In this document: in pieces, positions 7,367 through 64,000 of the stretch
Position numbering within the stretch: the stretch's first letter is position 1
How the letters are laid out: every line of letters starts with the position of its first letter
Assembly (NCBI GenBank): GCA_000004695.1
Contig: CM000153.2
Coordinates: 2,016,001 to 2,080,000, forward strand
Direction of reading: 5' to 3'
From: Dictyostelium discoideum
Taxonomy: Eukaryota
DNA: 64,000 nucleotides
The notes under the pieces: model-generated
What the model was told of the DNA's origin: nothing
The model's input: only the letters and a program-made list of their open reading frames with translations
Database searches by the model: none
Program-made: the position numbers and the translations under genes

Positions 7367-8270
7367 TCAATCATTAATCATTTTCAATAATATTCTAAAA
7401 CTATAATTATTTATTTATTTAAAACTTTTATTTATTAATAAATGTAAATTTATTTTTTATTTCAAATTTTTAAAAAAACTGTTAATTTCTTTTTAATGGT
7501 TGAAAAGTTGTTATTTTTTTTTTTTTAATTAAAATTATTTGAACATTAAAAAAGAAATTCAAATTTCTTCGATTTTTTTATTTAGATTTAAATTATTTTT
7601 TTTTTAATTTTTTTTTTTTTAAAAAATCGAAATGTCAAAACCAAAAAAGAATGCGTGCGACGTGGCTTTTTTTTTTAATTATTATAATAATGAATCATTT
7701 TTAAGATTCACCCGAATGGTGAGAATAGTGAATTTAAATTTCGTACACAGTTATATAAGGTTGGATATTTTAAAGTCTTTTTTGTTTGTCTATGGACTAG
7801 ATATTTTTTTTTTTTTTAATAAAATAATGTCTTTTTATTAAATAAAAAAAAAAAAAATTTCCTTAATTCGTGATTGGTTAAAATAATTTATGATTAGATC
7901 TTATTGGGGGGTTCGGATAATTATTATTTTTGAATTCAAAAATAAAAAAATTAAAAAAAATTAATAAATTCAACGGTTTATAATAATAATAATGATGTTG
8001 ATGACTTCTGGTCTTGTTCTTTTTTTTTTTTTGAAAAAATCTTATTTTTCTAATAATGTAATTTTTGCTACCTCTTAAAAAAACTATAGATCTAATTCTT
8101 TATGGTATTAGGATCTATGCCTGATATTTAATTTTTTTATAATAATAATAGTTTATTGTTAAATTTTTGTTTAAATAGCAATTTAATTTTTTTTTTTATA
8201 AATCATTAAAATCATAAATTAAAAAACAAATAAAAAAAAAATAAATAAATATATATATAAAAAAAATAAA

Positions 8271-9047
8271 ATGAAATTAATTTTAAGTTTATTAACTTTA
8301 TCAATTTTATATTGTGCTAATACTGTAAATGCAATTAGTGGTCAAGTAACATATTATAATGATGTAGGTTATGGCGCCTGTGGTACTGCTATTGATGCAA
8401 ATACACAATTTTTAGCAGCAGTTCCACCAGCTTATTGGACTACAGCAAATCCAAATTTAGATCCAGTTTGTGGTAAACAAGTAAAATTAACATATAATGG
8501 TAATTCAATTACACTTCCAGTACGTGATAAATGCCCAGGTTGTCCAACTAATAATATTGATATTAGTGCTCCTGCATTTACTCAATTAGTAGGTAGTCTT
8601 GGACCTGGTAGAGTTAGTGTAACTTGGGAATTCCTTGGTGGTAGTTCAAGTGGTGGTACAACAGGTACAGTTTCAACAACAACTGGTGGTAGTGGTACTT
8701 GTCCAAGAACTGCAACAGTTAGTGCAGGTCAAGGCTGTTATGACGTATGGGTATCAAATTGTAATAATGCTTGGGATGAGAACCAATTCTACGCTGCTAA
8801 TCCAGGTGTATCATGTACTGCTCTTCAAGTTGGTCAAAAATTATGTTGTGGTGGTACATCATCATCATCTTCAACAACTGGTAGTGCTTCTTGTTCAAGA
8901 AAAGGTACTGTTGATGCAGGTCAAGGTTGTTATGATGTATGGGTATCAAAATGTAATAATGCATGGAATGAGAATCAATTCTATGCTGCAAATCCAGGTG
9001 TTGTTTGTACTGATCTTCAAGTTGGCCAACAATTATGTTGTAATTAA
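8271..9047 (+). CDS. Secreted DPBB-domain protein with two Cys-rich repeats; tandem paralogue 2 (~85% identical to 6587..7366)
   Basis: 258-aa ORF with signal peptide MKLILSLLTLSILYCANTVNA. Same domain order and near-identical mature sequence. Confidence 0.65.
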   Translation: MKLILSLLTLSILYCANTVNAISGQVTYYNDVGYGACGTAIDANTQFLAAVPPAYWTTANPNLDPVCGKQVKLTYNGNSITLPVRDKCPGCPTNNIDISAPAFTQLVGSLGPGRVSVTWEFLGGSSSGGTTGTVSTTTGGSGTCPRTATVSAGQGCYDVWVSNCNNAWDENQFYAANPGVSCTALQVGQKLCCGGTSSSSSTTGSASCSRKGTVDAGQGCYDVWVSKCNNAWNENQFYAANPGVVCTDLQVGQQLCCN

Positions 9048-9135
9048 TAATTTCAAATTAATAATTGATGAATATTATTAAGATAAAATAAAAACAATAT
9101 TTTTTGATAGCAAAGGGTTAATGATGTAAGATTTT

Positions 9136-9173
<38 letters not shown>

Positions 9174-9453
9174 CAAAAATATTAAGAGAGAGTGGTTGAT
9201 ATAGTACTATATCATAAATTAATTTCAATGGTAATCATACCCCAAACATTATTATTAATGTTAATGGGGTGTTTAAATTATTGATTTAAAATTGATATTA
9301 TATCTGTTATTCATTTAAAATTAATTTTTTAAAACTAGAGAATTAATTTATTTAGTTTTTAAAATAAGTATAAAAAATACCAGATTTAGCAGTAATTTTT
9401 TTTTCTGCAACAAAACCCATTTTAATTATTTTTTTATTTTATGTGTTTCTGAA

Positions 9454-11149: not shown

Positions 11150-11372
11150 TTTTTTTTTTTTAATTTTTTTGAATTTTAAAAAAAAAAAAAAATAAAAAAA
11201 ATTGAAATTTTTTTCACCTTAAACAGTGTTTATATATTTAATTTTAGTTTTTTTTATTTTATTTTATTTTTTATTTTTTTTGTAAAAAAACTAAAAACAT
11301 AATTAAATTAGATTACTATATATATATATATGTATAATATATGAATAAAAAAATATTATTAAAAACATATTA

Positions 11373-11425
<53 letters not shown>

Positions 11426-11461
11426 TTATTATTTATATATATTTATAAATAAATAATAAAA

Positions 11462-13157
11462 ATGACACTAATTCAAAATGAACATCCAGAAATTAGTAAT
11501 ATAATAAATAATATTCAACAAAATCAAAAGAATAATAAAATCAATGATTTGAAAAATTTTTTAGAGAATTCAAAACATTTTGGTGATTTTAGAAAATACT
11601 TAATTGAAAAGAATAAGTATTCATTGGCATCAATGTTACAATGTTATGAATCGATTCAATCATTTAAACAATCATTTTTAGTAGATAATCCACCATTTAA
11701 TTTAAAATTAGCAAATGATATCATATCAACCTTTTTAATTAAACCAACAAATTCAAACGTTTCACCAAACTCGAGTAATTCAAATTTATTTTCAAATAAT
11801 AATAATAATAATAATAATAATGGAACAGGATCATCATCATCATCATCATCACCACCACAATCACAACAACCATCATCATCTTCATTTTATATTGGTTTCA
11901 TTGATGCAAGTGTTTATAATAGTTTAAAAGCTTTATTAGATCCATTGTGGCAAAAACCAACTTCTTCAATTTCTTTAAATAGTTCTGTTAATACAACAAC
12001 AACAACAGCAGCAACAACAACATCTAATAACCCATTATCAACATCATCATCAAGTATTGGTGCTGGTGGTTCATTATTTGATTCATCACCATTAGATTCT
12101 GATTCTGATTTATTTGGTACCCCAACAACACCAGTACCAATACCAACACCAACAAAAACAACAACAACATCAACAGTTGAGGATCCAGAAGAACCAACTA
12201 AAGAACAAATAAATAAACAAAAAGAGATTAAAGATGATTTATCAACACATGTCACCCATAATTTATTCGATATATTAATTGAATTCTTAATATTCAAATT
12301 AGAGCCTGAATTTAGAAAATATATGGCCATAATTACTCCAAATGTATGTTTTTAATTTATCCTTATTATTATTATTATTCTTTGTTTTAAATTTATATAT
12401 ATTTTTTTTTCATTTTTTTTATTTGAAAGTTTTAAAAAGTTGGATCCTTTTTGGAAGATCCTGGGAAAGGCCAAAAAAAAAAATAAAAATAAAAAAAAAA
12501 ATAAAAAAAAAAGAAAAGAAAAAAAAAAAAATAAAAAAAAAAGAAAAAAAAAATTTTATAATTTGACCTAAATTTGCTGATTTTCATATACTGACCTTTT
12601 TTTTTTATTACTTTTAGAACGAACAAAGTTTTAACCCATTAAATAGTAATAATAATAATAACAATAATAATAATAATACAAATACAAATTCAAATATGGT
12701 ATTTGAATCACCATTAACACCAAAGAAAGAGGAAGTTGCAGCCAATTTTTATATAAATAATTTAAATAACAGTAGTAATAGTATAAACTATAATAGATTA
12801 GAAGGAGAGAATAGAATAGTATGGTTTGGAGATCAAGATCATATTCCAGTTTACTATGTGGATCATTTAGGTGGTGCAATAATTCAAGCATTACTATATA
12901 TAACCGAATTTAGATTCCTATTCATTAGTAAACTAACTATGACCGAATTAACATGGATACCATTAGCAACAGTTTATCGTATTGAAAGAGTAACAAGTTT
13001 TAGGTTTGACAGTGCAATTTCAATATGGGGTAAAAATTTTAGGAGGATTGAATTTCATATTGATCCAAAAGAGTTTAAACAACAATCATTTAATACATTA
13101 GGTGGTATTTCTGTAAATAATAATAATAATAATAACAATAGCAATAATAATAATAAC

Positions 13158-49756: not shown

Positions 49757-50102
49757 TCAAATAGTCTCTTTTCCATTTTTTTTAATTTTTCTTTTTTTTC
49801 AAGCTATGGCCACATAAGACATGTCGATTTTTTTGGGTTACATTGAAAAATAATTTTTTTTTTAAAAAGTTTTTTTAAAAAGTTTTTTTAAAAAGTTTTT
49901 TTTTTTTTTTTTTTATTTTCTTTTTATTTTCATAAAGACATTTATTAGGTTGGGTTATCAAAATTATAATTTATTTATTAAAAATAAAAAAAAAAAAAAA
50001 ATAAAAAAAAACAATTTAAATTGTTTGAAAACACACAAAAAAATAAAAAATCAAAAAAAATTAATTTGTTTTTAGGGTGTGTGCTAAAAATAAATAATAA
50101 CA

Positions 50103-50136
<34 letters not shown>

Positions 50137-50315
50137 CAATGTGTTTTTATTTTAATATTTTATTATTATTATAATTATTATTTATTTATTTTCACCAACC
50201 AATTTATTTATTTATTTATTTTTTATTTATCTATACAATTTTTTAAATCTTTTTTTTTTTATTATTTTTTTTTGAAAAAAATAATAATAATAATAATAAT
50301 AAAAAATAAAATAAA

Positions 50316-51704
50316 ATGAATTTAAATAAAACATTATTTAAAAGAGTTTATGCATTATGTTTTTCACTCTTAATGATAATAGTTTCATATAATAATTTTT
50401 ATAATAATTTCCTTGGTAATCCAGGTGTTTATTTCTATCATAAAGATATTGAAAGAGCAACTTATGGGAACTATTATAATAATGACGCAAAATATCATAA
50501 CAATTCCAATAAATTTAATGTGGATAATGATGATCCATACAAACATACAAATATTGAAGGTGAAGGAGTTATAACTCGAGATGCTATTAAAGAATTAAAC
50601 ATTTCAAATGATCAATATTTTTATTTTAAATATATTGGAAGAGTTGATACGAGAAAATTAGATCGTGATACAATTATTAGATGTAAAGGATTAGATGATA
50701 AATTTTACTACATAGTAAGGAAACCATATTACCCAAACCAAAAACTTGATATGGAGATATGGAGTGATTATATCGTTGATTTTGAAGCACCAAAAAAGAA
50801 GCTATCATCTAGAAATGTGCCAAGAACATTGATATCGATGGAACCTCAACCCAATAGAACTTGTGAATTTGATAAGGACTGTTTTGAATTTTTCAATTTT
50901 AAAGTTTCATTCGAATCTCAATCTGATATAAGAATGGGATTTGATACACCATCATCAAGTGCATACAAATTGTATAATAAATTAACAATTGATGAAATTG
51001 CTAAAATTCAAACTCAATTCAAATTGGAATATCAAGTAATGAAACACAACAATACTTTACAACCTCACCAGAAATCGATACCATTGGCCAATTGGTTTTG
51101 TACAAATTGTAATTCTCATTCGAATCGTAATGAATATGTTCAGGAATTAATGAAATTCATTGTGGTGGATTCTTTTGGTAAATGTTTGAAAAACATGCCA
51201 ACTTCTAATTTCCTAAGTAGAGGTTCTGGTGACCCATTCGAAAGAAAGAGACTATTTATAACTAGATATAAATTTACAATTGTTTTTGAAAATTCAATTT
51301 GTAAAGATTATGTATCTGAAAAGGTATTGGATGCATTAATTGCTGGATCCGTACCAATATTTATGGGTCATCCAAGTACTATCAAATATTTACCACTCAA
51401 TTCTTATATATTTGTTGGTGATTTTAAAAATGCTGAACATTTAGCAAATCATTTGAAATTTTTAAGTGAAAATGATAATGAATATTTTAAACTTCATACA
51501 TGGAGAACAAATCAAACTGTAATCGATCAATGGAAAGGTGTAAATAATTATCCAAATAAACCTGGTTTTAGATTCCGTGAAGTTCAATGTCCAATTCTAA
51601 GACATTATCAACGTTTAAAAACTGGTAAAATACCATTAAAAAAATTAAAATATAAACCAATGAATCAAGTTTGTTTACCTTCAAACTATTATAAAATTAA
51701 ATAA
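50316..51704 (+). CDS. GT10-family alpha-1,3-fucosyltransferase-like type II membrane protein (paralogue 3 of 3)
   Basis: 462-aa ORF; signal-anchor VYALCFSLLMIIVSYNNF. ..RYKFTIVFENSICKDYVSEKVLDALIAGSVPIFMGHPSTIKYLP..FVGDFKNAEHLANHLKFLSENDNEYFKLHTWR. Confidence 0.75.
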   Translation: MNLNKTLFKRVYALCFSLLMIIVSYNNFYNNFLGNPGVYFYHKDIERATYGNYYNNDAKYHNNSNKFNVDNDDPYKHTNIEGEGVITRDAIKELNISNDQYFYFKYIGRVDTRKLDRDTIIRCKGLDDKFYYIVRKPYYPNQKLDMEIWSDYIVDFEAPKKKLSSRNVPRTLISMEPQPNRTCEFDKDCFEFFNFKVSFESQSDIRMGFDTPSSSAYKLYNKLTIDEIAKIQTQFKLEYQVMKHNNTLQPHQKSIPLANWFCTNCNSHSNRNEYVQELMKFIVVDSFGKCLKNMPTSNFLSRGSGDPFERKRLFITRYKFTIVFENSICKDYVSEKVLDALIAGSVPIFMGHPSTIKYLPLNSYIFVGDFKNAEHLANHLKFLSENDNEYFKLHTWRTNQTVIDQWKGVNNYPNKPGFRFREVQCPILRHYQRLKTGKIPLKKLKYKPMNQVCLPSNYYKIK

Positions 51705-51734
51705 AATATATAAATATATTTTTTGTATAAATTT

Positions 51735-51789
<55 letters not shown>

Positions 51790-52242
51790 TTATTTAATTA
51801 ATTAATTTTTTTTTTTTTTAATTTTTTATTTTATTAATTTTCAAAAATATTTTTAAAATCATTAAAAAATGTTTTAATCACAAATTTTCAAATTAGTTAT
51901 AAATAAAAAATTAACACATTCTTAAGAATTTTTGTTTTTTTTTTTTTTTAAATAAACTGTTTAATTTTTATTTTTTTTAAAAATTAAAGGTAAATTAGTG
52001 GACAAAATAAAAAATTTAAATTAAATTATTACCCTTTTTTTTTTATTTTTATTATTAGTATTTTTAATTTTTAATGATTACATTCATTTTTTTTTACATT
52101 TCGAATGATTTTGTATATTGCAATATACTAAACCCATATTAAAAATAAATAAAATTAAATCATTTAAAATAATAAAATTAAAAATAATAAAAATAAATTA
52201 TTTTTTAACTTTCAAGTCTGACAATATTTCAACAATTACAAC

Positions 52243-52279
<37 letters not shown>

Positions 52280-52356
52280 AAAATTTGAAAATTGAAAAAT
52301 TTTTTTTCATTTACTTTTAATTTGATATGTACATTTAAAAAATAAAAAAAAAAACA

Positions 52357-54234
52357 ATGGATACGACATTAACTGAAACTATCCAAAATAACAATAATAT
52401 TAATAAATCAATAAATAATAAAAAAAAATTAAAACATCAAAAGAAAAAAGAACAAAAAAAGAAACAAAAACAACAAAAAAAAGAAGAGAATATATTTCAA
52501 CAAACTAATAATAATAATATAAAAGAAGAAATAAAACTTGAAAATAATGATGAAAATAATGATGAAAATAATAATAATAATGATGATGATAAAATAACAG
52601 CACCAATTGATGGATTTTCAATTGATGAGAATGATCCATCATTTGAATTATTTTCGAAATTAGTTAAACATTTTGATAACCCATATGAAGATCCAAAAGA
52701 GATTGAGAGAAAAGAACAAGAAGAACAAGAAGAAAAAGAAAGAAAAGAAAGAGAGGAAGAAGAAGAAAGAAAGAAAAAAGAAGATAATGAAGACGATGAT
52801 GATGATAATAACGATGATGATGATAATAATAATGATAATGAAGACGAGGATTCAAAGAAATTATCAAATAAAGAGAGAAAAAGACAAAGAAAATTACATT
52901 TACCAATTTTAAAACAGTTAGTTGATAGACCTGATGTTGTAGAGTTACATGATGTAAATTCACCAAATCCTGGCTATTTGATCGCAATGAAGTCCTATAG
53001 AAATACAATACCTGTGCCAGCACATTGGTGTCAAAAAAAGAAATACCTTCAAGGTAAGAGAGGTTTCGTTAAACCACCATTCGAATTACCATCATTCATC
53101 GCAGCGACAGGTATCACTAAGATTAGGGAGGCAATATTGGAGAAAGAGAAAGAGATGAAATCAAAACAAAAACAACGTGAAAGAGTTCAACCAAAAATTA
53201 GAAAGATGGGTATAGATTATGAAGTTTTACGTGACGCTTTCTTTGTTCATCAAACTAAACCAAATCTATCCATTCAAGGTGACCTCTACTATGAAGGTAA
53301 GGAATTCGAGGTTAACCTAAAGAACAAGAAGCCTGGTGTTTTATCCGACGAATTAAAGCGTGCACTTGGCATGATTGAGGGTTACCCACCACCATGGTTG
53401 ATTTATATGCAAACTTATGGTCCACCACCATCTTATCCAAATTTGAAAATACCCGGTGTTAACTCACCAATTCCAGAGGGTGCTCAGTATGGTTTTCATC
53501 CTGGTGGTTGGGGTAGACCAGTTTTAAATGAATTTGGTAAACCACTTTATGAAAATGTAAATAATAATAATAATAATATAAATAATAACGGAGATCAACA
53601 ACAGCAGCAACAACAATCACATCCAACTAGAGAATATTGGGGTGAATTATTACCAGAATCTGAAGATTTTCAAGAAGAAGAGGAACAACAAGAACAACAA
53701 GGTACTGAAGAAGATGAATTACAACAACACCAACTTGAAGATGATGAATCGATTGGTGATGGTATTTCAAGTGTACCAAGTGGTTTGGAAACTCCTGATA
53801 TTGTTAATATTAAAAAATCAAGATATGACCAACAACAACAGCAACAACAGCAACAACCAAGAGAATTATATCAAGTTATTGAACAACAAAATAAAAACTC
53901 ATCTTCTGGTGGTTTAATGGAATCAGCTCATCGTTATAATATACCATCAGTAATTAAACAACAACAGCAACAACAACAACAACAAAATTCATCTAGAGTA
54001 GATGTAATTAAATCTCAACGTTCTGCACCTGTAGAAATTACATTAAATCCATCAGAGGTTGAAAATGGTCAAGAAATTGATGAAGAACTTTTGAAAAAGA
54101 AATATGAACAAGCAACACAAGCATTACAGAAACAAAGACCAAAAGAAGACATTAGTGACATCATCGAAGAACAAAATAAAAAAAGAAAAAATCAATTACA
54201 AAAAGAAGAAAAACAAAAGAAATTCAAATTTTAA
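52357..54234 (+). CDS. sf3b2: Splicing factor 3B subunit 2 (SF3B2/SAP145/Cus1) homologue: basic/acidic low-complexity N-terminus, DUF382 and PSP (proline-rich) domains
   Basis: ..YLIAMKSYRNTIPVPAHWCQKKKYLQGKRGFVKPPFELPSFIAATGI.. and GVLSDELKRALGMIEGYPPPWLIYMQTYGPPPSYPNLKIPGVNSPIPEGAQYGFHPGGWGRP are the conserved SF3B2 blocks. Single 625-aa ORF. Confidence 0.8.
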   Translation: MDTTLTETIQNNNNINKSINNKKKLKHQKKKEQKKKQKQQKKEENIFQQTNNNNIKEEIKLENNDENNDENNNNNDDDKITAPIDGFSIDENDPSFELFSKLVKHFDNPYEDPKEIERKEQEEQEEKERKEREEEEERKKKEDNEDDDDDNNDDDDNNNDNEDEDSKKLSNKERKRQRKLHLPILKQLVDRPDVVELHDVNSPNPGYLIAMKSYRNTIPVPAHWCQKKKYLQGKRGFVKPPFELPSFIAATGITKIREAILEKEKEMKSKQKQRERVQPKIRKMGIDYEVLRDAFFVHQTKPNLSIQGDLYYEGKEFEVNLKNKKPGVLSDELKRALGMIEGYPPPWLIYMQTYGPPPSYPNLKIPGVNSPIPEGAQYGFHPGGWGRPVLNEFGKPLYENVNNNNNNINNNGDQQQQQQQSHPTREYWGELLPESEDFQEEEEQQEQQGTEEDELQQHQLEDDESIGDGISSVPSGLETPDIVNIKKSRYDQQQQQQQQQPRELYQVIEQQNKNSSSGGLMESAHRYNIPSVIKQQQQQQQQQNSSRVDVIKSQRSAPVEITLNPSEVENGQEIDEELLKKKYEQATQALQKQRPKEDISDIIEEQNKKRKNQLQKEEKQKKFKF

Positions 54235-54280
54235 AAATTATCAAAACGTTTTGAATAATATCAAATAATAAATTTTTTAT

Positions 54281-55515
<1,235 letters not shown>

Positions 55516-55612
55516 TAACCTTTTTTTTTATTATTTTATTATTTGTATCTTTTATAATTAATAAAAAAAAAAAAAAAAAAAAAAAATGAAAAAATAAAAA
55601 CAAAAACAAAAC

Positions 55613-55646
<34 letters not shown>

Positions 55647-55985
55647 TTTTAAACAAAATAACTAATTTCTTTGAAATTATTTTCTTATTTCTTAAATCGT
55701 GCCATTGACACAACCTTTAAAAAATAAAAACAAAACTTTTTTTTTTGAAATAATTTAACTTTATATAATAATGAAAACGCTTCGCTAAACTAAATTAACT
55801 ATTGTCTATTTTTTTTTTTTTTTTTTTATTATTATTTTTTTTTTTTTTTTAATATAAGATTTTAAAGATATTATTAAAATCATCTAAAATTATTTTATTT
55901 CCAAAAAAAAAAAGTTTTCACACACCTTGAGGTTTTTTTAAAAAAAAAAATCAAAATTATTATTATATTATATTATTTAAATTGT

Positions 55986-56320
<335 letters not shown>

Positions 56321-56790
56321 CTGGATTATTTAAATAAAAATTATTGTTATTATTATTATTATTCATACATTCTACTCAAATCCGATATTGATAGATAAAA
56401 AAACCAGTACATACTATTTATTTATTGTGTGCTTTTTATATTTAGAGAATGAGAAAAAAAAAAAAAAAAATTTTAATCGAAAAAATAAAAATAAAAAAAA
56501 AATAAAAAATAAAAAAAATTGAAAATAAAAAATAAAAATAAAAAAAAAAAATGTTTTGTTTTTTTGATTTGTTAAAAAGAAAATTTTCTTTATTTTAAAA
56601 TAACTAGTTGTAATAGTATTTAAATTTTTACAATTGTTTTTTTTTTTTTTCCAAATAAGATTTAAAATATTAAAATATTAAAAGATTAAAAGATTAAAAG
56701 ATTAAAAGATTGATTGATAGTTTTTTTTGAATTAAAATAAATATAAATATATATGTGTATTAAATATAGTCGCCCAATTTGAGATCAAAT

Positions 56791-56975
<185 letters not shown>

Positions 56976-58059
56976 CCATTAAAAACACTAGAGAGAGACT
57001 AATTTAAGACACCCTGTGATGAGAAAAATATGATAGCCGCGAGAAAGAATTAAAATTTGAATTTATAAGTTGGTATTACAGAATTAAAAAAATAAAGGTT
57101 GATTTTTCACTTTTTTTTTAGTCCCTTAACACTAATTTCTAAAAATAGAAAAAAAAAAAAAATGTTAGAAATTTATAAATAAAAATAAAGCTATATTAAT
57201 AATTAAAAAAACTTACACCTTCTCTTTTAATGGAATTTCTATTACTATTTTTAAAAGAAGTTCTTTTTTTATTTCCCAATGGCTTTGAGGTTGGGAGAGT
57301 AATTAATAAAAATGGTAAAACATCCCACATTATGTTGATTTTATTATTATTATTATTATTATTTATAAAAATTAAAAATGTAGTTTTTAAAAAATACTAT
57401 TATTATTATTTTGAAGTGATTAAAATAATTTTTTTTTTTTTTATGATTTAATAAAAAATATTTAAATAATTTAAATAAATAAATAAAAATTTATGAAAAA
57501 AAAAAAATAAAGAAATTTAATTATAATTATTATTATTATTAATATTAATTATTATTATAATAAAAAATTGATTGTAGTAATATGAAAGTAGTAAACCGAT
57601 GAATGAAAATTAATTGAATATCGTTTTTTTATTATTTAATTGAAATAATAGTTTATTTTAATTTAATAAAAATATTAAAATTTATATATATAGTTAATTT
57701 TAATTATTTTAAAAAAATGGTTATTGTTATTTAGAAAAATATAAAATAATTTTATTTTGTTTTGATTAATTTTTTTTTTATTTAAGAAATTATTGAAAAT
57801 ATAATTTTTTAAATATTATATATTAAAATAATAATTAATATTTGGTATATATTTGATGATGTTGATGATGACGATTATTAATAATTAAATTCAAAAAATT
57901 ATCAATTAAATAATAATTATTAATTTAATAATTTTTTTTTTTTTTCTTTTTTTTTTTTTTTATAATGATTTAAAATATTATTATTATTATTATTATATTT
58001 TTGTTTTCTTATTAAATTTTTTAATAATTATTATTAGTATAAAAAATATCTAATATAAT

Positions 58060-58222
58060 TGTATTTATATGGTGGGGTCTGTGGTGAGTTTGTGTGTATT
58101 TTGAATTAAAAAACAAAAAAAGTTTTTGATTGAACCAAATAAAGATAATTTATAAATTAAAAAACTAAGAGGCACAAAAAAAAAACAATGATTATAAATA
58201 ATATTAATAAATAATTTTAAAA

Positions 58223-58274
<52 letters not shown>

Positions 58275-58950
58275 ATATATATATTTGTTAATGTTTTGTT
58301 TTATGATAAATGATTTATTTTTTTTTTTTTTTTTTCTTTTGATTGATTTAAATAGAAAAAAAAAATTAATATTAATAAGGGATTGTGTGTATGGTTAGTA
58401 TTAATTAAAAAAAAAAAATATATGAAAAAAAAATTAATGCGTGATATTGGTAATGAAAATCAATATGGTGTGAAGGAGAGAGAGAGAGTATGTGTTTGTG
58501 TTTGTGTGTGTGGTTAGAGTGAGAGAGTTTGGGTGTTATTTGTGGAGTTAATGGGTTATTTATAGCCTATGATATTTTTGTCAACTCACACAACAACCCA
58601 AAAAAATAAAAAATTAAAAAATAAACCACATGACTAAAAATTCATTTAAGATTGTGTGTGATTACAAATTTTTGATTTTAGTTGGTTAAAAAAAAAAAAT
58701 TAAAAAAAAAAAAAAAAAAAAAAAACAATTATAATTACAAAGTCAAAATGTATATTTTAAAATAATATATTAAAATATAAATATTTAAGATTAGAAAGTG
58801 GGTTTGGTGTCTTTTTAGGTTTGGGGTGCTATGTATATTAATTTTTTTTTTTTAAAAAAAAAAAATTTATCGTGCTCTATGTATGTTTTTTAACTTAATA
58901 ACTGTATTTTAGTGTCTTTGTGTCTGCCCAAACTGGATTTTGTGTTAAAT
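58060..58950. promoter_or_regulatory. Cluster of G/T-rich islands (GGTGGGGTCTGTGGTGAGTTTGTGTGT; GTGTTTGTGTTTGTGTGTGTGG with (GA)7; GGGTTTGGTGTC..GGTTTGGGGTG; GTGTCTTTGTGTCTGCCC) inside a 3.4-kb gene-free AT-rich tract
   Basis: GT-rich islands stand out against >85% AT surroundings. Resembles G-box elements (established GBF targets) or could be exons of an unrecognised transcript. No ORF support. Confidence 0.25.
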
Positions 58951-59050
58951 TTTTTTTATTTTTTTTTTTAAAAAAAAAAATAATCAAAAAAAAAAATTAA
59001 AAAAAAAAACAAATAAATTACACATCTAAAATACTATTAAAGAATTAATA

Positions 59051-59081
<31 letters not shown>

Positions 59082-59161
59082 GTTTTATCATTTTTAACCG
59101 TTAAATCAAACTATTATTTTTTTATTGATTTGTATATACAGGTTTTATTATTATAATGATT

Positions 59162-59199
<38 letters not shown>

Positions 59200-59228
59200 T
59201 TGAATGGAATTAAAAAGAATTTACTTTA

Positions 59229-59260
<32 letters not shown>

Positions 59261-59517
59261 TGATTAACAAAAAATTGTATAATCTGGTCTTTTTCAGATA
59301 TTTTAGAACCAAAAACAGAGATATTGGGTGATTGATATGTGGTGGGAGAGTACTTGTTTATTAATAAAAAACAAGCATAACCCCAACTACCCACACTACT
59401 ACTACTACAAATAACCACTTTGTTTATTTTACTGTATACTATTAGTTTCACAGGATATTTCTTAATTATATATGATTATTAATCTGCATCTGATTTATTT
59501 CTTTTTTTACTATACTA

Positions 59518-59548
<31 letters not shown>

Positions 59549-59740
59549 CTGCATCTTTTTTTAAATCAAGATTCTACTACTTGTTTTTTTTTTTTTTTTA
59601 TTTTTTTTTTCTTTGTGATTATTGACGATTTCTAAAAATAGTTTTTTACAACGATTAAAAGTTATTATTGATTTTTCTTTGTGATTTGATTTTTATTAAT
59701 TAATAAACCGAAATGAATGATTAATTAATTAATTATTTAC

Positions 59741-59945
59741 CTATCAAAATTATAATCAATCTTGATTTTTTTTTTTATGTGAATTTAATTTAAATTTTGT
59801 TTTTCAAACATTTTTTGCTTTTCTTTTAAAAATAAACCAATAATTAGCCAATCGACTAACGTTTAAAAATATTTTTATTTTTATTTTTATTTTTATAATA
59901 ATAAAAAAGGAGTTTTGTTTTTAAATTTTTTATTATTTATATTTC

Positions 59946-59978
<33 letters not shown>

Positions 59979-60476
59979 ATATAAAATAAAATAAATAAAA
60001 TAAAAATTACCTGACTTAAAAATGTAAAGAATTGTGTTTATTGTCCAAATTAAAAAAGTGATATTTTTTTTTTATTAAAATTATTTTCTTTTTATTTTTA
60101 AAATAAAGATACAATTAATTTAAAACAAAAAGAGGAAGAAATTGGGAAGGGTTCAAGATTTTCATAAAAATTTTAAAATAAAATAAATATTAAAATTTTT
60201 TTTTTATTTTTTTTTGAATCTGACAATTGGTAACAACTTTTTTTATATTTTTTTTTATTTTTTTTTATTTTTTTTTATATATTATTTGATTCACAGTTAA
60301 AGCTTCTTTTTTTTTTTATTTTTTTTTTTTTTTCTTTTTGTGTACTATCAAAGTTGATTGGGTTTTTTAACCAATCACAACGTGATGGTAGTGGCAATAT
60401 AAAACAAATTTTTTTTTTTTAGTTTAATAATTTAACACTTTATAAAAAAAAAAAAAAAAATCATCACATACTTTTA
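59741..60476. repeat. Copy A of a ~750-bp direct repeat (about 95% identical to 62800..63668). Carries CCAAT (AACCAATCAC), TATAAAAC and an oligo-T run near its 3' end; its first ~50 bp (59741..59790) are inverted relative to copy B
   Basis: Long co-linear identity read directly, e.g. CCAATAATTAGCCAATCGACTAACGTTTAAAAATATTTTTATTTTTATTTTTATTTTTATAATAATAAAAAAGGAG.., ..AAAGAGGAAGAAATTGGGAAGGGTTCAAGATTTTCAT.., ..GTGTACTATCAAAGTTGATTGGGTTTTTTAACCAATCACAACGTGATGGTAGTGGCAATATAAAACAA. Confidence 0.85.
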
Positions 60477-61505
60477 TGAGAAAAAAAAAAAGATACATAA
60501 AATTTAAAATGAGTAATAAAATAGCAAACCAGAAAAGTTTGATGAATATTGGCAATGTTTTCACTTAAAAATGGTACAAAAAAAGAATGGAAGAGGTGAA
60601 GGTAATGTTTATTTTGGTTTAAAATTGTATAGTTGCAATAAATGTGACATAAAGAGATGTGTATACCGCCATCTCCACCTGAACACACTTTCAATTCAAC
60701 AGTATTATTCATAAGATACTATATAGAGAAAAGATTAATCTCAAATCACATAATAATCAATAATAATAATAACTAATAATAATGACCAATAATAATAATA
60801 ATAATAATAACTAATAAACTACATTAAAGTTTAAACAAGTTAATTCAAACTATGTAATCAGTTTTATTTTATAGAATTATTATTCTTCATCTAAATTTAA
60901 TTTAATTCTGTCATTGATTTCAATTGATAAATAAAATTTTAACATATCACACCAAGTGTTTTTTTTATTTTTTTTTTTTTTATTTTAATAATGCCAATAT
61001 TATTTTATTCTTATACTTGGCAACCTTCTCAAAGAACGCCAATCCCAAGTTCATCAACTGGTTAAGAAAGGTATCTGATCTTTGCATACCAATCGGTGGA
61101 ACCATTATACGTTTTGCATTTAGTAATATACTTTGGTATGGAATGAAAAACTTTTATAAAAAGCATGGTTTTTAAAAAAAAAAAAAATCTTTTTTTTACA
61201 AAAAAAAAAAAAAAAATGAAAAAACGAAAAAATGGTTTTAGCTCGCATTTTTAAAATATCATGATTTTTTTTTTTCTTCCATTTATTCTTTATGTTTTTT
61301 TCCCTCGTGGATTTATCTTCGATCGAACCGTCACATCTCTTTTATTTATAATAAAAATAACAAAAATTATTTTACCATCATTTGTCATTTTAAAAATAAA
61401 TATAAATAAACATAAACATTAAACAAACAACAACAATAACAATAACAACAACAACATAATATAATCAATATAATTTTAATATATATATATAGATAATAAA
61501 TAAAT

Positions 61506-62422
61506 ATGAAGATAATAAATAGTTTTCTTATTACATTAATTTTTGTTCAATTAATTTTACAAATTAATGGTATAAATGAAAGTTTATTTAATCAAAACAG
61601 ACAAGTTAGAAAATCAAATTTAGAAGATGATATACCATTATACTTTTCAGTATTACCTTTTGCAAGAGGTAATTTTTAATCAACATTATATATTTATAGA
61701 ATACACAATTTTTTTTACATCAATATTAACATCATCATCATCATCATATTAAATATATATAATTATTTATTTTTTTACATATTATAGGTAATTATTCATG
61801 CTCATTTGGTGGTATTTATGGAATTGGATTCCTTGGTTTAATAAATCAATGTGTCAATGATCCATATAATCCAGATTATAATTATTACATTTTCTTACAA
61901 GAGCAAGGTTCAGATAATGAACAAATTGTGTATCAATTACATAATAAAACCGATACCGATTGTACTGGTGAACCACCATTTTCAAATTATCATTTCATAA
62001 ATAGAGAGGGAACATGTGATGCCGCCCCTAACTTTATCGGTTTAGAGGATCAAATTGTAGATTTATACAACGAAAATAATGGTCAAAGATATCTCTATGA
62101 TGAACCTGCCTTTATAACTGTTTCCGATATGCCATATTCTGCTCATAACTCTGTATTCTTTGCTCTTTATAATCAAAGTTTTTGTAGTTCTGAAGCTCAA
62201 TATCCACACTATGCAAAAGTTTTTTCAATTGGTTTACAAATGTTAACTCAAGAAGGTGTCACCTATTTCTATTCATGTGATCCACATACTTATCTTCCAC
62301 AAATTACACTCTGTAAAAGTAAGGATAATTGTGAAACTAAAGCTTTAGATAATAGTTGTTCACTTGTAGATGGTACAGAAGATGTTTATCAACAAATCTT
62401 CTGTTCCCCAAGTTTTCAATAA
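61506..62422 (+). CDS. Secreted Cys-rich protein of unknown function. Exon 1 61506..61668 (signal peptide MKIINSFLITLIFVQLILQING), intron 61669..61786 (GTAATT..TTATAG), exon 2 61787..62422. The reading frame changes by 1 nt between ~61844 and ~61940 (frameshift or unconventional splice)
   Basis: Exon 1 and the start of exon 2 (GNYSCSFGGIYGIGFLGLINQCVNDPYNPDYNYYIFLQEQGSDNE) are in one frame. The long conserved-looking C-terminal ORF (..VYQLHNKTDTDCTGEPPFSNYHFINREGTCDAAPNFIGLEDQIVDLYNENNGQRYLYDEPAFITVSDMPYS..CSPSFQ*) is in the +1 frame. Each frame hits a stop outside the ~100-nt overlap. Confidence 0.45.
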
Positions 62423-62471
62423 ATAAATTAAATTTTTGAAATCACTATAAATTATATATTATTATCATTTC

Positions 62472-62508
<37 letters not shown>

Positions 62509-62799
62509 ATTGTTGATTCATTATCATTATAACTACTATCTTATGATTGAGTATTTATCTATTTCATTCTCTAATTGTTGTTGCCTATCAATTTATTATT
62601 AGTTAAAATGCTGTATGACGAAGATGATAATAATAGAGATAAAAAAAAAACTTTTGTAATAAATTTTCAAAAAAACTTAAATGAATGAGTTATGGGGTTA
62701 AAGACATTTTAATAAACAACATTACAACACACATTAAAATAATGAATAATTCATTAAAGATAATATCTTTATTTTTCATTATCTATTTATCTATTGATA

Positions 62800-63294
62800 A
62801 ATTCACATAAAAAAGAAAATCAAGATTGATTATAATTTTGATAGGTAAATAATTATTTAATAATAAATAAATTTTGTTTTTCAAACTTTTTTTGCTTTTC
62901 TTTTAAAAATAAACCAATAATTAGCCAATCGACTAACGTTTAAAAATATTTTTATTTTTATTTTTATTTTTATAATAATAAAAAAGGAGTATTGTTTTAA
63001 AATTTTTTATTATTTAAATTTCCAAAAAAAAAAAAAAAAAAAAAAAATAAAAATAAAATAATATAAAATAAATAAAACAAAAAATTACTTGACATAAAAA
63101 TGTAAAAAATTGTGTTTATTGTCCAAATAAATAACAAACAAAAAAAAAAAATAAAAGTGATATTTTTGTTTTTATTAAAATTATTTTCTTTTTATTTTTA
63201 AAATAAAGATACAATTAATTTAAAACAAAAAAGAGGAAGAAATTGGGAAGGGTTCAAGATTTTCATTAAAAAATTAAAAATAAAATAAATATTG

Positions 63295-63325
<31 letters not shown>

Positions 63326-63335
63326 AAAAAAATTT

Positions 63336-63409
<74 letters not shown>

Positions 63410-63668
63410 AATCAGACAGTTGGTAACAACTTTTTTTATATTTTTTTTTTTTTTATTTTTTTATTTTTTTTATATTATTTGATTCACAGTTAAAGCTTTT
63501 TTTTTTTTTTTTTTTTTTTTTCTTTTTTGTGTACTATCAAAGTTGATTGGGTTTTTTAACCAATCACAACGTGATGGTAGTGGCAATATAAAACAAAATT
63601 TTTTTTTTTTTAGTTTAATAATTTAACACCTTTTATGAAAAAAAAAAAAAATCATCACATACTTTTAT
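62800..63668. repeat. Copy B of the ~750-bp direct repeat; ends ~170 bp upstream of a gene start at 63841
   Basis: See copy A. Small indels in homopolymer runs and a longer internal T-run (63330..63410). Confidence 0.85.
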
Positions 63669-63795
63669 AAAAAAAAAAAAAAAAATATTTTTTTAAAATT
63701 TAAAAAGAAGAATAGATATTCAATCAAAAATTTATTTATTAAAACAATAATAATAATAATAATAAAATAATAAACAAACCAAATTTAAAGCAAAA

Positions 63796-63828
<33 letters not shown>

Positions 63829-63840
63829 GAACAGGCAATA

Positions 63841-64000
63841 TGGCAACAACTCCTTCATCAATAATAAATACAAATAATACAAATACAAACACAAATACAA
63901 ATAATAATAATGATGATACATCACATTTTTCATCTTATAAATATTCAATAGATAGTTGGAAGAATTTAAATTATTTTAAAATATTAAAGTTAAATCAAGA
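63841..64000 (+). CDS. Start of a gene running off the window end (MATTPSSIINTNNTNTNTNTNNNNDDTSHFSSYKYSIDSWKNLNYFKILKLNQ...)
   Basis: ATG in A-rich Kozak-like context (aacaggcaatATGg) ~170 bp downstream of repeat copy B. The frame stays open to the window end. No similarity recognised. Confidence 0.3.

Follow-up and report, generated by a model that had tools for sequence, protein, structure and literature searches.

Comparison of a window of Dictyostelium discoideum DNA (AX4 type, 64 kb) with four further D. discoideum-clade assemblies (among them L004, D. cf. discoideum), D. citrinum, and D. firmibasis revealed a direct repeat that most probably arose in a single lineage-specific event, an ordinary local rearrangement that doubled the promoter and 5′ end of one gene (gene B) around an insertion of ~2 kb. 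In each of the four further D. discoideum-clade assemblies, the two copies occupied matching syntenic positions. D. citrinum and D. firmibasis each contained one copy, directly upstream of the gene-B ortholog, and the homology between the copies in L004 extended into codon 10 of gene B. These three observations together point to one lineage-specific duplication event. Copy A lies 3.1 kb upstream of copy B, beyond the CfaA/B/C-family gene DDB_G0284511. Copies in the window are called AX4 copies below, and the features of the region are as follows.

59470 to 59723, + strand: left extension L, kept in AX4 beside copy A only
59724 to 59787, + strand: edge segment X, ancestral orientation, as in the single copies of D. 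firmibasis and D. citrinum
59791 to 60518, + strand: copy A, putative paralogous relic of the gene-B promoter, all conserved blocks retained
60354 to 60430, + strand: predicted core promoter of copy A (sequence, 39-mer same as in copy B, positional rule of PMC3371697), with TTGATTGG at 60354-60361, CCAATCA at 60371-60377 (CCAAT dyad), TATAAAAC at 60398-60405, and T12 at 60409-60420
60519 to 60786, + strand: AX4-lineage-only segment with ORFs of 19 and 47 codons, absent from L001, L003, and L004
60787 to 60835, + strand: possible gene-B 5′UTR remnant, (AAT)n ... TAATAAAC ... TTAAAG, weak low-complexity homology
61506 to 62422, + strand: CfaA/B/C-family gene DDB_G0284511, putatively encoding a secreted protein, intron 61669-61787 (splice model)
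62798 to 62861, − strand: edge segment X, inverted (derived state), left end of copy B
62868 to 63716, + strand: copy B, putative gene-B promoter region, orthologous to the single copy of the sister species
63543 to 63620, + strand: predicted core promoter of copy B (sequence, block conserved in D. citrinum and D. firmibasis, rule of PMC3371697), with TTGATTGG at 63543-63550, CCAATCA at 63560-63566, TATAAAAC at 63587-63594, and T13 at 63599-63611
63717 to 64000, + strand: 5′UTR and start of gene B, ATG at 63841, MATTPSSIINT...

Extent and content of the repeat pair

MAFFT and local alignment paired copy A (59791-60518) with copy B (62868-63716). The direct repeat described in an earlier note on this DNA is thus real, and its homology extends to ~60518 and ~63716, past the right ends given there. 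The identity of about 95% proposed in that note was reproduced (95.6% over well-aligned columns; 4.4% mismatches, 632 columns). The differences had been described as limited to homopolymer lengths, and this proved incorrect, with ~28 substitutions, a 21-bp indel, and a ~50- to 100-bp indel in the central A/T tract. A blastn search with deliberately permissive settings gave the A-B match 685 bits, compared to at most 155 bits anywhere else in the 64-kb window; permissive scoring, or dust filtering switched off, flooded the blastn output with AT-rich noise. The 39-mer AACCAATCACAACGTGATGGTAGTGGCAATATAAAACAA, which spans the CCAAT and TATA motifs, occurred exactly twice, at 60369 and 63558, and was matched in none of 100 shuffles.

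Homology between the copies was longer in L004, covering 1.23 kb (copy A, 8131-9364; copy B, 11415-12640; local alignment) from ~250 bp left of X, through the 5′UTR, to codon 10 of gene B. The copy A relic in this assembly, ..ATATTACAACAACTCCTTCATCAATAATAA, aligned unambiguously with the ..ATATGGCAACAACTCCTTCACCAATAATAA of copy B across UTR and ATG. Whether the duplication had once included coding sequence had been raised as a check, and the first ten codons of gene B are indeed covered. L was found in L004 beside copy B too, in direct orientation and on the far side of X (local alignment).

The inverted edge reported earlier is a genuine small inversion of 64 bp (59724-59787 versus 62798-62861; 96.9% identity), within which a 32-mer is found at 59738-59769 on the + strand and at 62816-62847 on the − strand. 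X is flanked by AT-only near-palindromic sequence, TAATTAATTAATT ... AATTTAATTTAAATT. The comparison with other strains that had been recommended recovered both copies and the inverted edge in all five D. discoideum-clade assemblies, with X uniformly forward at copy A and reversed at copy B. X in D. citrinum and D. firmibasis has the orientation of copy A.

The proposal that a promoter region had been duplicated was borne out at the level of predicted promoters, with a CCAAT/TATA/T-tract core shared by the two copies. [quoted passage not shown] The promoter-like order noted previously, in which TATAAAAC as the TATA box precedes a T tract of 12 to 13 nt, is roughly consistent with this rule in both copies, and TATAAAAC matched the consensus at seven of eight positions. 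Starts are predicted at ~60422-60430 for copy A and ~63613-63620 for copy B. Both copies resemble the canonical Dictyostelium Pol II core promoter (Kimmel & Firtel 1983; Chang et al. 2012, PMC3371697) in the TATAAA-type box and in the T tract of at least 12 nt just before the expected start. They differ from it in a C, rather than A/T, at the eighth TATA position and in a tract end ~20 bp, rather than ~27 bp, after the TATA midpoint, a geometry that is roughly right.

The putatively inserted DNA between the copies carries DDB_G0284511 as its cargo. The product of this gene was identical to AX4 protein XP_638537 and matched Pfam family PF11912 (98.4 bits; cutoff, 28.6). Its N terminus, MKIINSFLITLIFVQLILQING, contains a signal-like hydrophobic segment, consistent with secretion. 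No mention of DDB_G0284511 was found in the literature. The product of gene B is 1529 aa long (L002 annotation), of low complexity, and contains a fibronectin-III-like region; its best named relative was a “Fibronectin type-III domain-containing” protein of T. lacteum. The search with the gene-B protein yielded two distant matches only and was swamped by low-complexity words, and matches to Pfam were of low complexity only. The genes that flank the copies are not paralogs; paralogous and unrelated genes had both been considered in the earlier note. No Rfam match was found at an E value of ≤1 in 56000-64000, and no tRNA genes were found in 50000-64000.

The ORFs reported after copy A exist, one of 19 codons beginning at 60511 and a Cys-containing one of 47 codons at 60571-60714, and had no Pfam match. 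They are restricted to the AX4 lineage, and copy B alone precedes a conserved gene; the view that each copy drives a gene was therefore not upheld. In L001 and L003, the segment at ~60519-60786 was deleted between two ATCACATA motifs. The 250 bp found in AX4 only had no match among the loci compared. The alignment score of the possible UTR remnant in AX4 was reached by 1 to 3 of 500 shuffles with the (AAT)n run and by 13 of 500 without it, and the remnant is collinear with the unambiguous UTR-plus-ATG relic of L004.

Comparison across strains and sister species

The interval between the Rad51 paralog and gene B measured 4.8 to 5.0 kb in D. citrinum and D. firmibasis, compared to 8.3 kb in AX4, and the copy A side and the copy B side of AX4 both mapped to one D. 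citrinum stretch. Neither the CfaA-family gene nor the insert DNA was found in the syntenic loci of these two species. Mismatches between copies A and B (4.4 to 9.9%) were fewer than those to D. citrinum (15 to 19%) or D. firmibasis (23 to 26%). The pair thus shows what is expected of a segmental duplication, namely, two copies versus one in the outgroups, conserved flanks, and lower divergence between paralogs than from the outgroups. The duplication had been called recent; it is younger than the D. citrinum split, yet it is common to all five D. discoideum-clade assemblies, including D. cf. discoideum, and so predates their divergence.

The CfaA-family protein had no relative beyond the D. 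discoideum-clade cluster in a word-indexed search of a database that includes D. citrinum and D. firmibasis proteins. A phmmer search of 1.84 billion representatives returned only its own 57-aa fragment and one weak, unrelated match. No paralog or donor of the ~2-kb insert was found in the window or in any of the six loci compared with it, those of L002, D. citrinum, and D. firmibasis included.

Conservation of copy B and erosion of copy A

Constraint was examined in 362 columns that were invariant across four B copies and both outgroups. In these columns, the A copies carried 5 to 18 substitutions and 11 to 49 deleted columns, whereas the B copies in the reciprocal test carried 2 to 3 substitutions and 0 to 1 deleted columns. 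No B copy had more than one mismatch in the CCAAT/TATA 39-mer, whereas copy A had three in L004 and, in L003, one substitution together with a 2-bp insertion. The CCAAT-dyad/TATA block was also nearly invariant before the gene-B orthologs of D. citrinum and D. firmibasis, within surrounding DNA that differs by 15 to 26%. A conserved position upstream of a gene was found for copy B only, and copy B is probably the working promoter of gene B. The 22-mer GAATCtGACAaTTGGTAACAAC of copy A (60216-60237) contains two changes in an otherwise invariant block. Since GAATCAGACAGTTGGTAACAAC and the CCAAT dyad with its TATA box are invariant in copy B and the two sister species and broken in copy A, they are candidate regulatory elements of gene B.

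Faster evolution of copy A, as judged by substitution counts, was considered and rejected. A relative-rate test of substitutions only showed no excess in A over B in AX4 (8 versus 10) or L004 (18 versus 16). Tajima-type counts, which were alignment sensitive around the indels of the A copies, showed an A excess in L003 (28 versus 5, D. citrinum as the outgroup) that was marginal in L001. Because AX4 and L004 had no substitution excess, the claim of decay is limited to indels and changes in conserved blocks. On these sequence grounds, copy A is probably a relic; it is eroding in some of the strains, but in AX4 its core is still intact, so that it may still fire into nonconserved sequence. AX4 copy A was closer to B copies (3.5 to 5.2%) than to other A copies (6.7 to 9.7%), and at 3 to 6 sites the A and B copies of a single genome agreed in state, compared to 2 to 3 plainly homoplastic sites, a hint of gene conversion between the copies.

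The intact AX4 core raises the possibility that copy A is a second functional promoter, either of a new transcript (the 47-codon ORF or a noncoding RNA) or, distally, of the CfaA-family gene. The CCAAT dyad, TATA box, AGTTTAATAATTTAACAC, and ATCATCACATACTTTTAT of AX4 copy A are identical to those of copy B, the T tract differs in length alone (T12 versus T13), and the relative-rate test showed no excess change. This reading is nonetheless unlikely, given that L001, L003, and L004 lack the downstream ORFs, that L003 and L004 have a damaged core, that the CfaA-family ATG lies ~1.08 kb past the predicted start with many ATGs between, and that all four annotated assemblies are free of gene calls between copy A and DDB_G0284511. 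Were AX4 copy A to fire into the AX4-only DNA, which is similarly doubtful, it would either be creating a transcript specific to this strain lineage, a candidate de novo gene at birth, or act as a distal second promoter, in which case the newly arrived CfaA-family gene would be regulated like gene B.

Origin of the duplication and related systems

In the proposed sequence of events, the ancestor would have had a single promoter, arranged as L, X, distal blocks, CCAAT dyad-TATA-T tract, and 5′UTR, directly upstream of gene B. After the D. citrinum split, but earlier than the divergence of the D. discoideum-clade strains sampled, ~2 kb containing the CfaA/B/C-family gene would have been inserted, and the insertion would have come to be flanked on each side by a ~1.23-kb stretch reaching from L into codon 10 of gene B; the net result would be a tandem duplication whose junction contains inserted DNA. 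The 64-bp X, with its AT-only near-palindromic borders, was inverted in copy B, either in the same event or soon after, and has been fixed since. Copy B would have retained gene B and remained its working promoter. Copy A, stranded without a gene, would have lost its UTR and ATG part by strain-specific deletions, and its conserved promoter blocks have changed in some strains.

The same arrangement could have been produced if the duplication and the CfaA-family gene predated the D. firmibasis and D. citrinum splits and both sister species had lost one copy and the gene by pop-out deletion. Pop-out would leave the observed outgroup state (left flank of A, X as in A, and right flank of B), and the few sites shared by A and B in one genome hint at homogenization, which can keep old paralogs alike. 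That signal is weak, however (3 to 6 sites versus 2 to 3 homoplastic sites), and the A-B divergence is far below that from either sister species. Ancient duplication would also involve one gain and two independent losses, compared to one gain; no relatives of the CfaA-family protein were found outside the D. discoideum-clade cluster by the word-indexed search, and no close relative was found by phmmer. This history is accordingly quite improbable.

Much less probable still is that the repeats belong to a dispersed family or represent the two LTRs of a nonautonomous LTR element, a repeat-family origin having been entertained in the earlier note. LTR retrotransposons of Dictyostelium include Skipper and DGLT-A. 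Direct repeats of 0.7 to 0.85 kb around a 2.3-kb interior do superficially resemble LTRs or solo-LTR pairs, in which two sub-kilobase repeats enclose a few kilobases. The window and each 21-kb locus contained only two copies, however, whose ends varied by strain (homology of 0.73 to 0.85 kb in AX4, but of 1.23 kb in L004, reaching the gene-B 5′UTR and ten codons). The supposed LTR contains a host promoter, UTR, and start codon and corresponds to the single-copy, positionally conserved gene-B upstream region of two other species. The interior is an intron-containing PF11912 gene, without retroelement domains and with no tRNA genes or RNA families nearby. The defined termini, target-site duplication, gag/pol interior, and multiple copies (here two per locus) that characterize LTR and TRIM elements were not found.

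Tandem duplication of a unit consisting of the CfaA gene and its promoter was also rejected; a tblastn search of 56300-61500 with the CfaA-family protein was empty, as was a tblastx comparison of 56300-61500 with gene B. A second, unrelated micro-inversion (24 bp, between a T run and an A run) was found in L004 only, which suggests that such inversions arise sporadically by mutation and not through a dedicated switch; two independent micro-inversions with AT-only inverted borders hint that extremely AT-rich DNA may be prone to this kind of mutation. The short X, bounded by imperfect inverted AT-rich sequence and present in both orientations inside one genome, is scarcely credible as an invertible element that flips to alter promoter output, as its orientation at each copy was the same in five of five assemblies, both orientations at one locus were not seen among them, no recombinase gene lies nearby, and the L004 micro-inversion points to sporadic mutation.

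With lineage-specific duplication as the preferred origin, masking the pair as a repeat family would be inappropriate, as would annotating the short ORFs that follow copy A as genes. The locus provides a dated and polarized example of a lineage-specific, putatively secreted-protein gene entering a Dictyostelium chromosome with the promoter of its neighbor doubled, and four strains serve as independent replicates of promoter fate after gene loss. The case is ordinary in kind and leaves current understanding unchanged.

Among known systems, the pair resembles partial (5′-end) gene duplications with an orphan promoter, in that the promoter, 5′UTR, and first codons are present twice and one copy keeps the gene while the other is stranded and eroding. 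It differs from them in that the copies are separated by ~2 kb of foreign DNA with an intact gene, instead of lying head to tail, and in that one copy has a fixed 64-bp inversion. In human genetics, complex rearrangements that combine a duplication with inserted or inverted junction sequence are attributed to replication template switching (FoSTeS/MMBIR), of which microhomology at each breakpoint between acceptor and donor templates is the defining feature. The duplication, the junction insertion from elsewhere, and the small inverted segment by the breakpoint are alike in this respect, but the inversion here may have arisen later and independently. Duplications in D. discoideum laboratory stocks have reportedly been described by Bloomfield and colleagues in 2008 (Genome Biol 9:R75; cited in PMC3371697); those are likewise segmental and in the same species, whereas the present one is ~1.2 kb and common to five assemblies, including D. 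cf. discoideum. As in other lineage-specific segmental duplications, the duplicated state is found in one lineage only, and the sister species are single copy.

Gene order and the repeated segment

Judged by its genes, the window (G+C content, 22%) is AX4-type D. discoideum DNA. At 90% identity, the spliced product of 61506-62422 clusters with XP_638537/DDB_G0284511, the 265-aa AX4 protein, and the chromosome-level assembly L002, which carries exactly this protein, was 99.7% identical to the window across 11.9 kb. DDB_G0284511, encoding a CfaA/B/C-family protein predicted to be secreted, is a clear PF11912 member, and no close relative of it was found by word-indexed search or phmmer.

Gene order around the repeat pair (window positions)
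52357-54234, + strand, SF3b2-like gene
54281-55515, - strand, RAD51C-type paralogue
about 56060-56320, - strand, TMA7
between TMA7 and the CfaA/B/C-family gene, ~5 kb without called genes
61506-62422, + strand, CfaA/B/C-family gene
ATG at 63841, + strand, gene B, large and of low complexity

The two copies, A at 59791-60518 and B at 62868-63716, were alignable end to end, with mismatches at 4.4% over 632 robustly aligned columns and several indels, including one of 21 bp and a difference of ~50 to 100 bp in the central A/T tract. The match scored 685 bits versus ≤155 bits for the AT-rich background. The repeat described in the earlier note is thus real, although its differences are not confined to homopolymer lengths as had been stated, and the inverted edge was borne out: segment X matched on opposite strands (59724-59787, plus; 62798-62861, minus) at 96.9% over 64 bp. 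A 39-mer bearing CCAAT and TATA motifs occurred only at 60369 and 63558 (chance expectation, none); the count of only two copies covers the 64-kb window and six 21-kb loci. In copy B of the window, the central A/T tract (63296-63408, including a run of ~75 T) exceeded that of the near-identical L002 by ~40 nt; either the homopolymer is unstable or the assembly is uncertain at runs of this length.

Within the stretch without called genes, a short ORF (MWDVLPFLLITLPTSKPLGNKKRTSFKNSNRNSIKRE...; 57196-57330, - strand) was identical over residues 1 to 37 to the product of a D. firmibasis gene predicted at 67 aa (L006, 8227-8430), and the DNA around it was only ~70% identical between the two species; either a small gene or a noncoding element may be conserved here. 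At 56779-56982, (TAT)n/(ATT)n repeats form a long tract that reads as poly-Tyr or poly-Ile ORFs; its match (~92%) to (AAT)n runs within L002 gene B, on their reverse strand, reflects a simple repeat and not homology. Two islands of raised G+C upstream of copy A (58400-58700 and 59200-59450; 27 to 31%) were still alignable to D. citrinum and D. firmibasis and yielded neither ORFs nor RNA-family matches.

Extent of the duplication and its inversions

Syntenic 21-kb loci of four further assemblies (L001, L002, and L003 from D. discoideum, and L004 from D. cf. discoideum) were retrieved via the CfaA-family protein. Each of the four carried copies A and B at the corresponding positions, with X always forward in the former and reversed in the latter, so that neither a misassembly nor an element that actively flips can explain the arrangement. 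The most informative locus was L004, in which A-B homology spanned 1.23 kb (A, 8131-9364; B, 11415-12640). On its left side the homology extended ~250 bp beyond X, and this extension was in direct orientation; X was therefore inverted in place within a longer direct duplication and does not mark a junction with unrelated DNA. On the right, the homology crossed the 5' UTR and took in gene B coding sequence as far as codon 10 (copy A, ..ATATTACAACAACTCCTTCATCAATAATAA; copy B, ..ATATGGCAACAACTCCTTCACCAATAATAA), so the duplicated unit comprises the upstream region and 5' end of gene B.

In AX4, L001, and L003, the left part next to copy B was deleted, and the UTR/ATG part next to copy A was lost or overwritten by different routes. 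In L001 and L003, a shared deletion of ~0.3 kb (L001, 9144; L003, about 9149; window, 60470-60800) is bordered by two ATCACATA motifs, which constitute microhomology at its ends. The AX4 segment at ~60519-60786 was absent from L001, L003, and L004 and had no match elsewhere in the window or the compared loci. The 19-codon and 47-codon ORFs of the earlier note sit inside this segment and had no Pfam match; they are not conserved genes, and the proposal of two promoters serving two genes falls with them. L004 has ~165 bp of G+C-richer sequence (~11230-11414; window, about 62775; ..AACACCTATACACCTCAACTATAAC..GATAGCAATGGATG..) that separates the left part of copy B from the downstream region of the CfaA-family gene; this piece and the adjoining left part (~0.42 kb altogether) are missing from AX4, L001, and L003.

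X is flanked by AT-only near-palindromic sequence (left, TAATTAATTAATT; right, AATTTAATTTAAATT) that can pair in inverted orientation. A second inversion of 24 bp, independent of X and found only in L004, occurred in the copy A flank (L004, ~8243-8290; window, 59600-59625), converting CTTTGTGATTATTGACGATTTCTA to its reverse complement TAGAAATCGTCAATAATCACAAAG between a T run and an A run. With two micro-inversions in ~1.2 kb, inversion appears to occur sporadically between short AT-rich tracts that lie in inverted orientation.

Conserved promoter blocks and erosion of copy A

Five blocks were nearly invariant in a multispecies alignment of four B copies and both outgroups, D. citrinum and D. 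firmibasis.

Conserved blocks
TAAATTTTGTTTTTCAAACC
AAAGATACAA.TAATTTAAAAC..AGAGGAAGAAA.TG.GAAGG
GAATCAGACAGTTGGTAACAAC
TATTTGATTCCACAGTTAAAGC
TGTGTACTATCAAAGTTGATTGGGTTTTTTAACCAATCACAACGTGATGGTAGTGGCAATATAAAACAAA (most notable)

These blocks are under constraint, since the surrounding DNA differs by 15 to 26% between species. In the last, a dyad-symmetric pair of CCAAT boxes (TTGATTGG ... CCAATCA) precedes TATAAAAC. [quoted passage not shown] Starts predicted from that layout fall near 60422-60430 and 63613-63620, in line with earlier estimates.

At the 362 columns that did not vary among B copies and outgroups, A copies carried 5 to 18 substitutions and 11 to 49 deleted columns; reciprocally, B copies carried 2 to 3 substitutions and 0 to 1 deletions. 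Copy A of L004 has lost the CCAAT and TATA matches (AAACAAT..., ATACAAAA), that of L003 lacks AAAGC and carries a 2-bp insertion in its core, that of L001 has an insertion within the invariant 22-mer, and that of AX4 has two substitutions in this 22-mer, with the core promoter untouched. Copy A is eroding, unevenly among strains, through indels and hits in conserved blocks; the claim is limited to these because a relative-rate test on substitution counts was not significant (AX4, 8 versus 10; L004, 18 versus 16). That copy A of AX4 is a live promoter is possible but rather unlikely.

Outgroups and history of the locus

The D. citrinum (L005) and D. firmibasis (L006) loci, retrieved via the neighboring RAD51C-type protein, had 4.8 to 5.0 kb between the RAD51 paralogue and the gene B orthologue, versus 8.3 kb in AX4. 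The sequences of both contained one copy, directly upstream of ATGGCAACTACTC..., and neither locus contained the CfaA-family gene or insert DNA. The copy A side of AX4 (to ~60518) and the copy B side (from ~63020) mapped to one D. citrinum stretch. X had the copy A orientation in both outgroups, so the inversion at copy B is the derived state. A-B divergence within the D. discoideum clade (4.4 to 9.9%) was close to the B-to-B distance between AX4 and L004 (5.4%) and far smaller than the divergence to D. citrinum (15 to 19%) or D. firmibasis (23 to 26%).

The simplest history places one event between the split from D. citrinum and the divergence of the sampled strains, shortly ahead of the latter. 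In such an event, ~2 kb bearing the CfaA-family gene would have been inserted upstream of gene B, with ~1.23 kb of target duplicated, one copy on each side of the insert; X may have inverted during the duplication, as in template-switch rearrangements, or afterwards. An old duplication from which each outgroup later dropped one copy by A-B pop-out recombination predicts the same outgroup structure but is quite improbable, as it takes three events rather than one and requires strong homogenization to account for the low A-B divergence, and the A-B conversion signal found was weak. A repeat family, the other option of the earlier note, is rejected, as is a mobile or LTR-type repeat: the ends vary, the "repeat" includes the UTR and the start codon of gene B, both outgroups have the orthologous site in single copy, and the interior is an ordinary PF11912 gene. 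No tRNA or Rfam family was found in the repeat region, nor any decayed CfaA-like or gene-B-like coding sequence upstream of copy A.

The duplicated-promoter reading was essentially right: in one lineage, the promoter and 5' end of gene B were duplicated locally, on either side of an inserted gene, and a micro-inversion became fixed. The locus provides a fresh, tidy, and well-resolved example of an already known kind of event.
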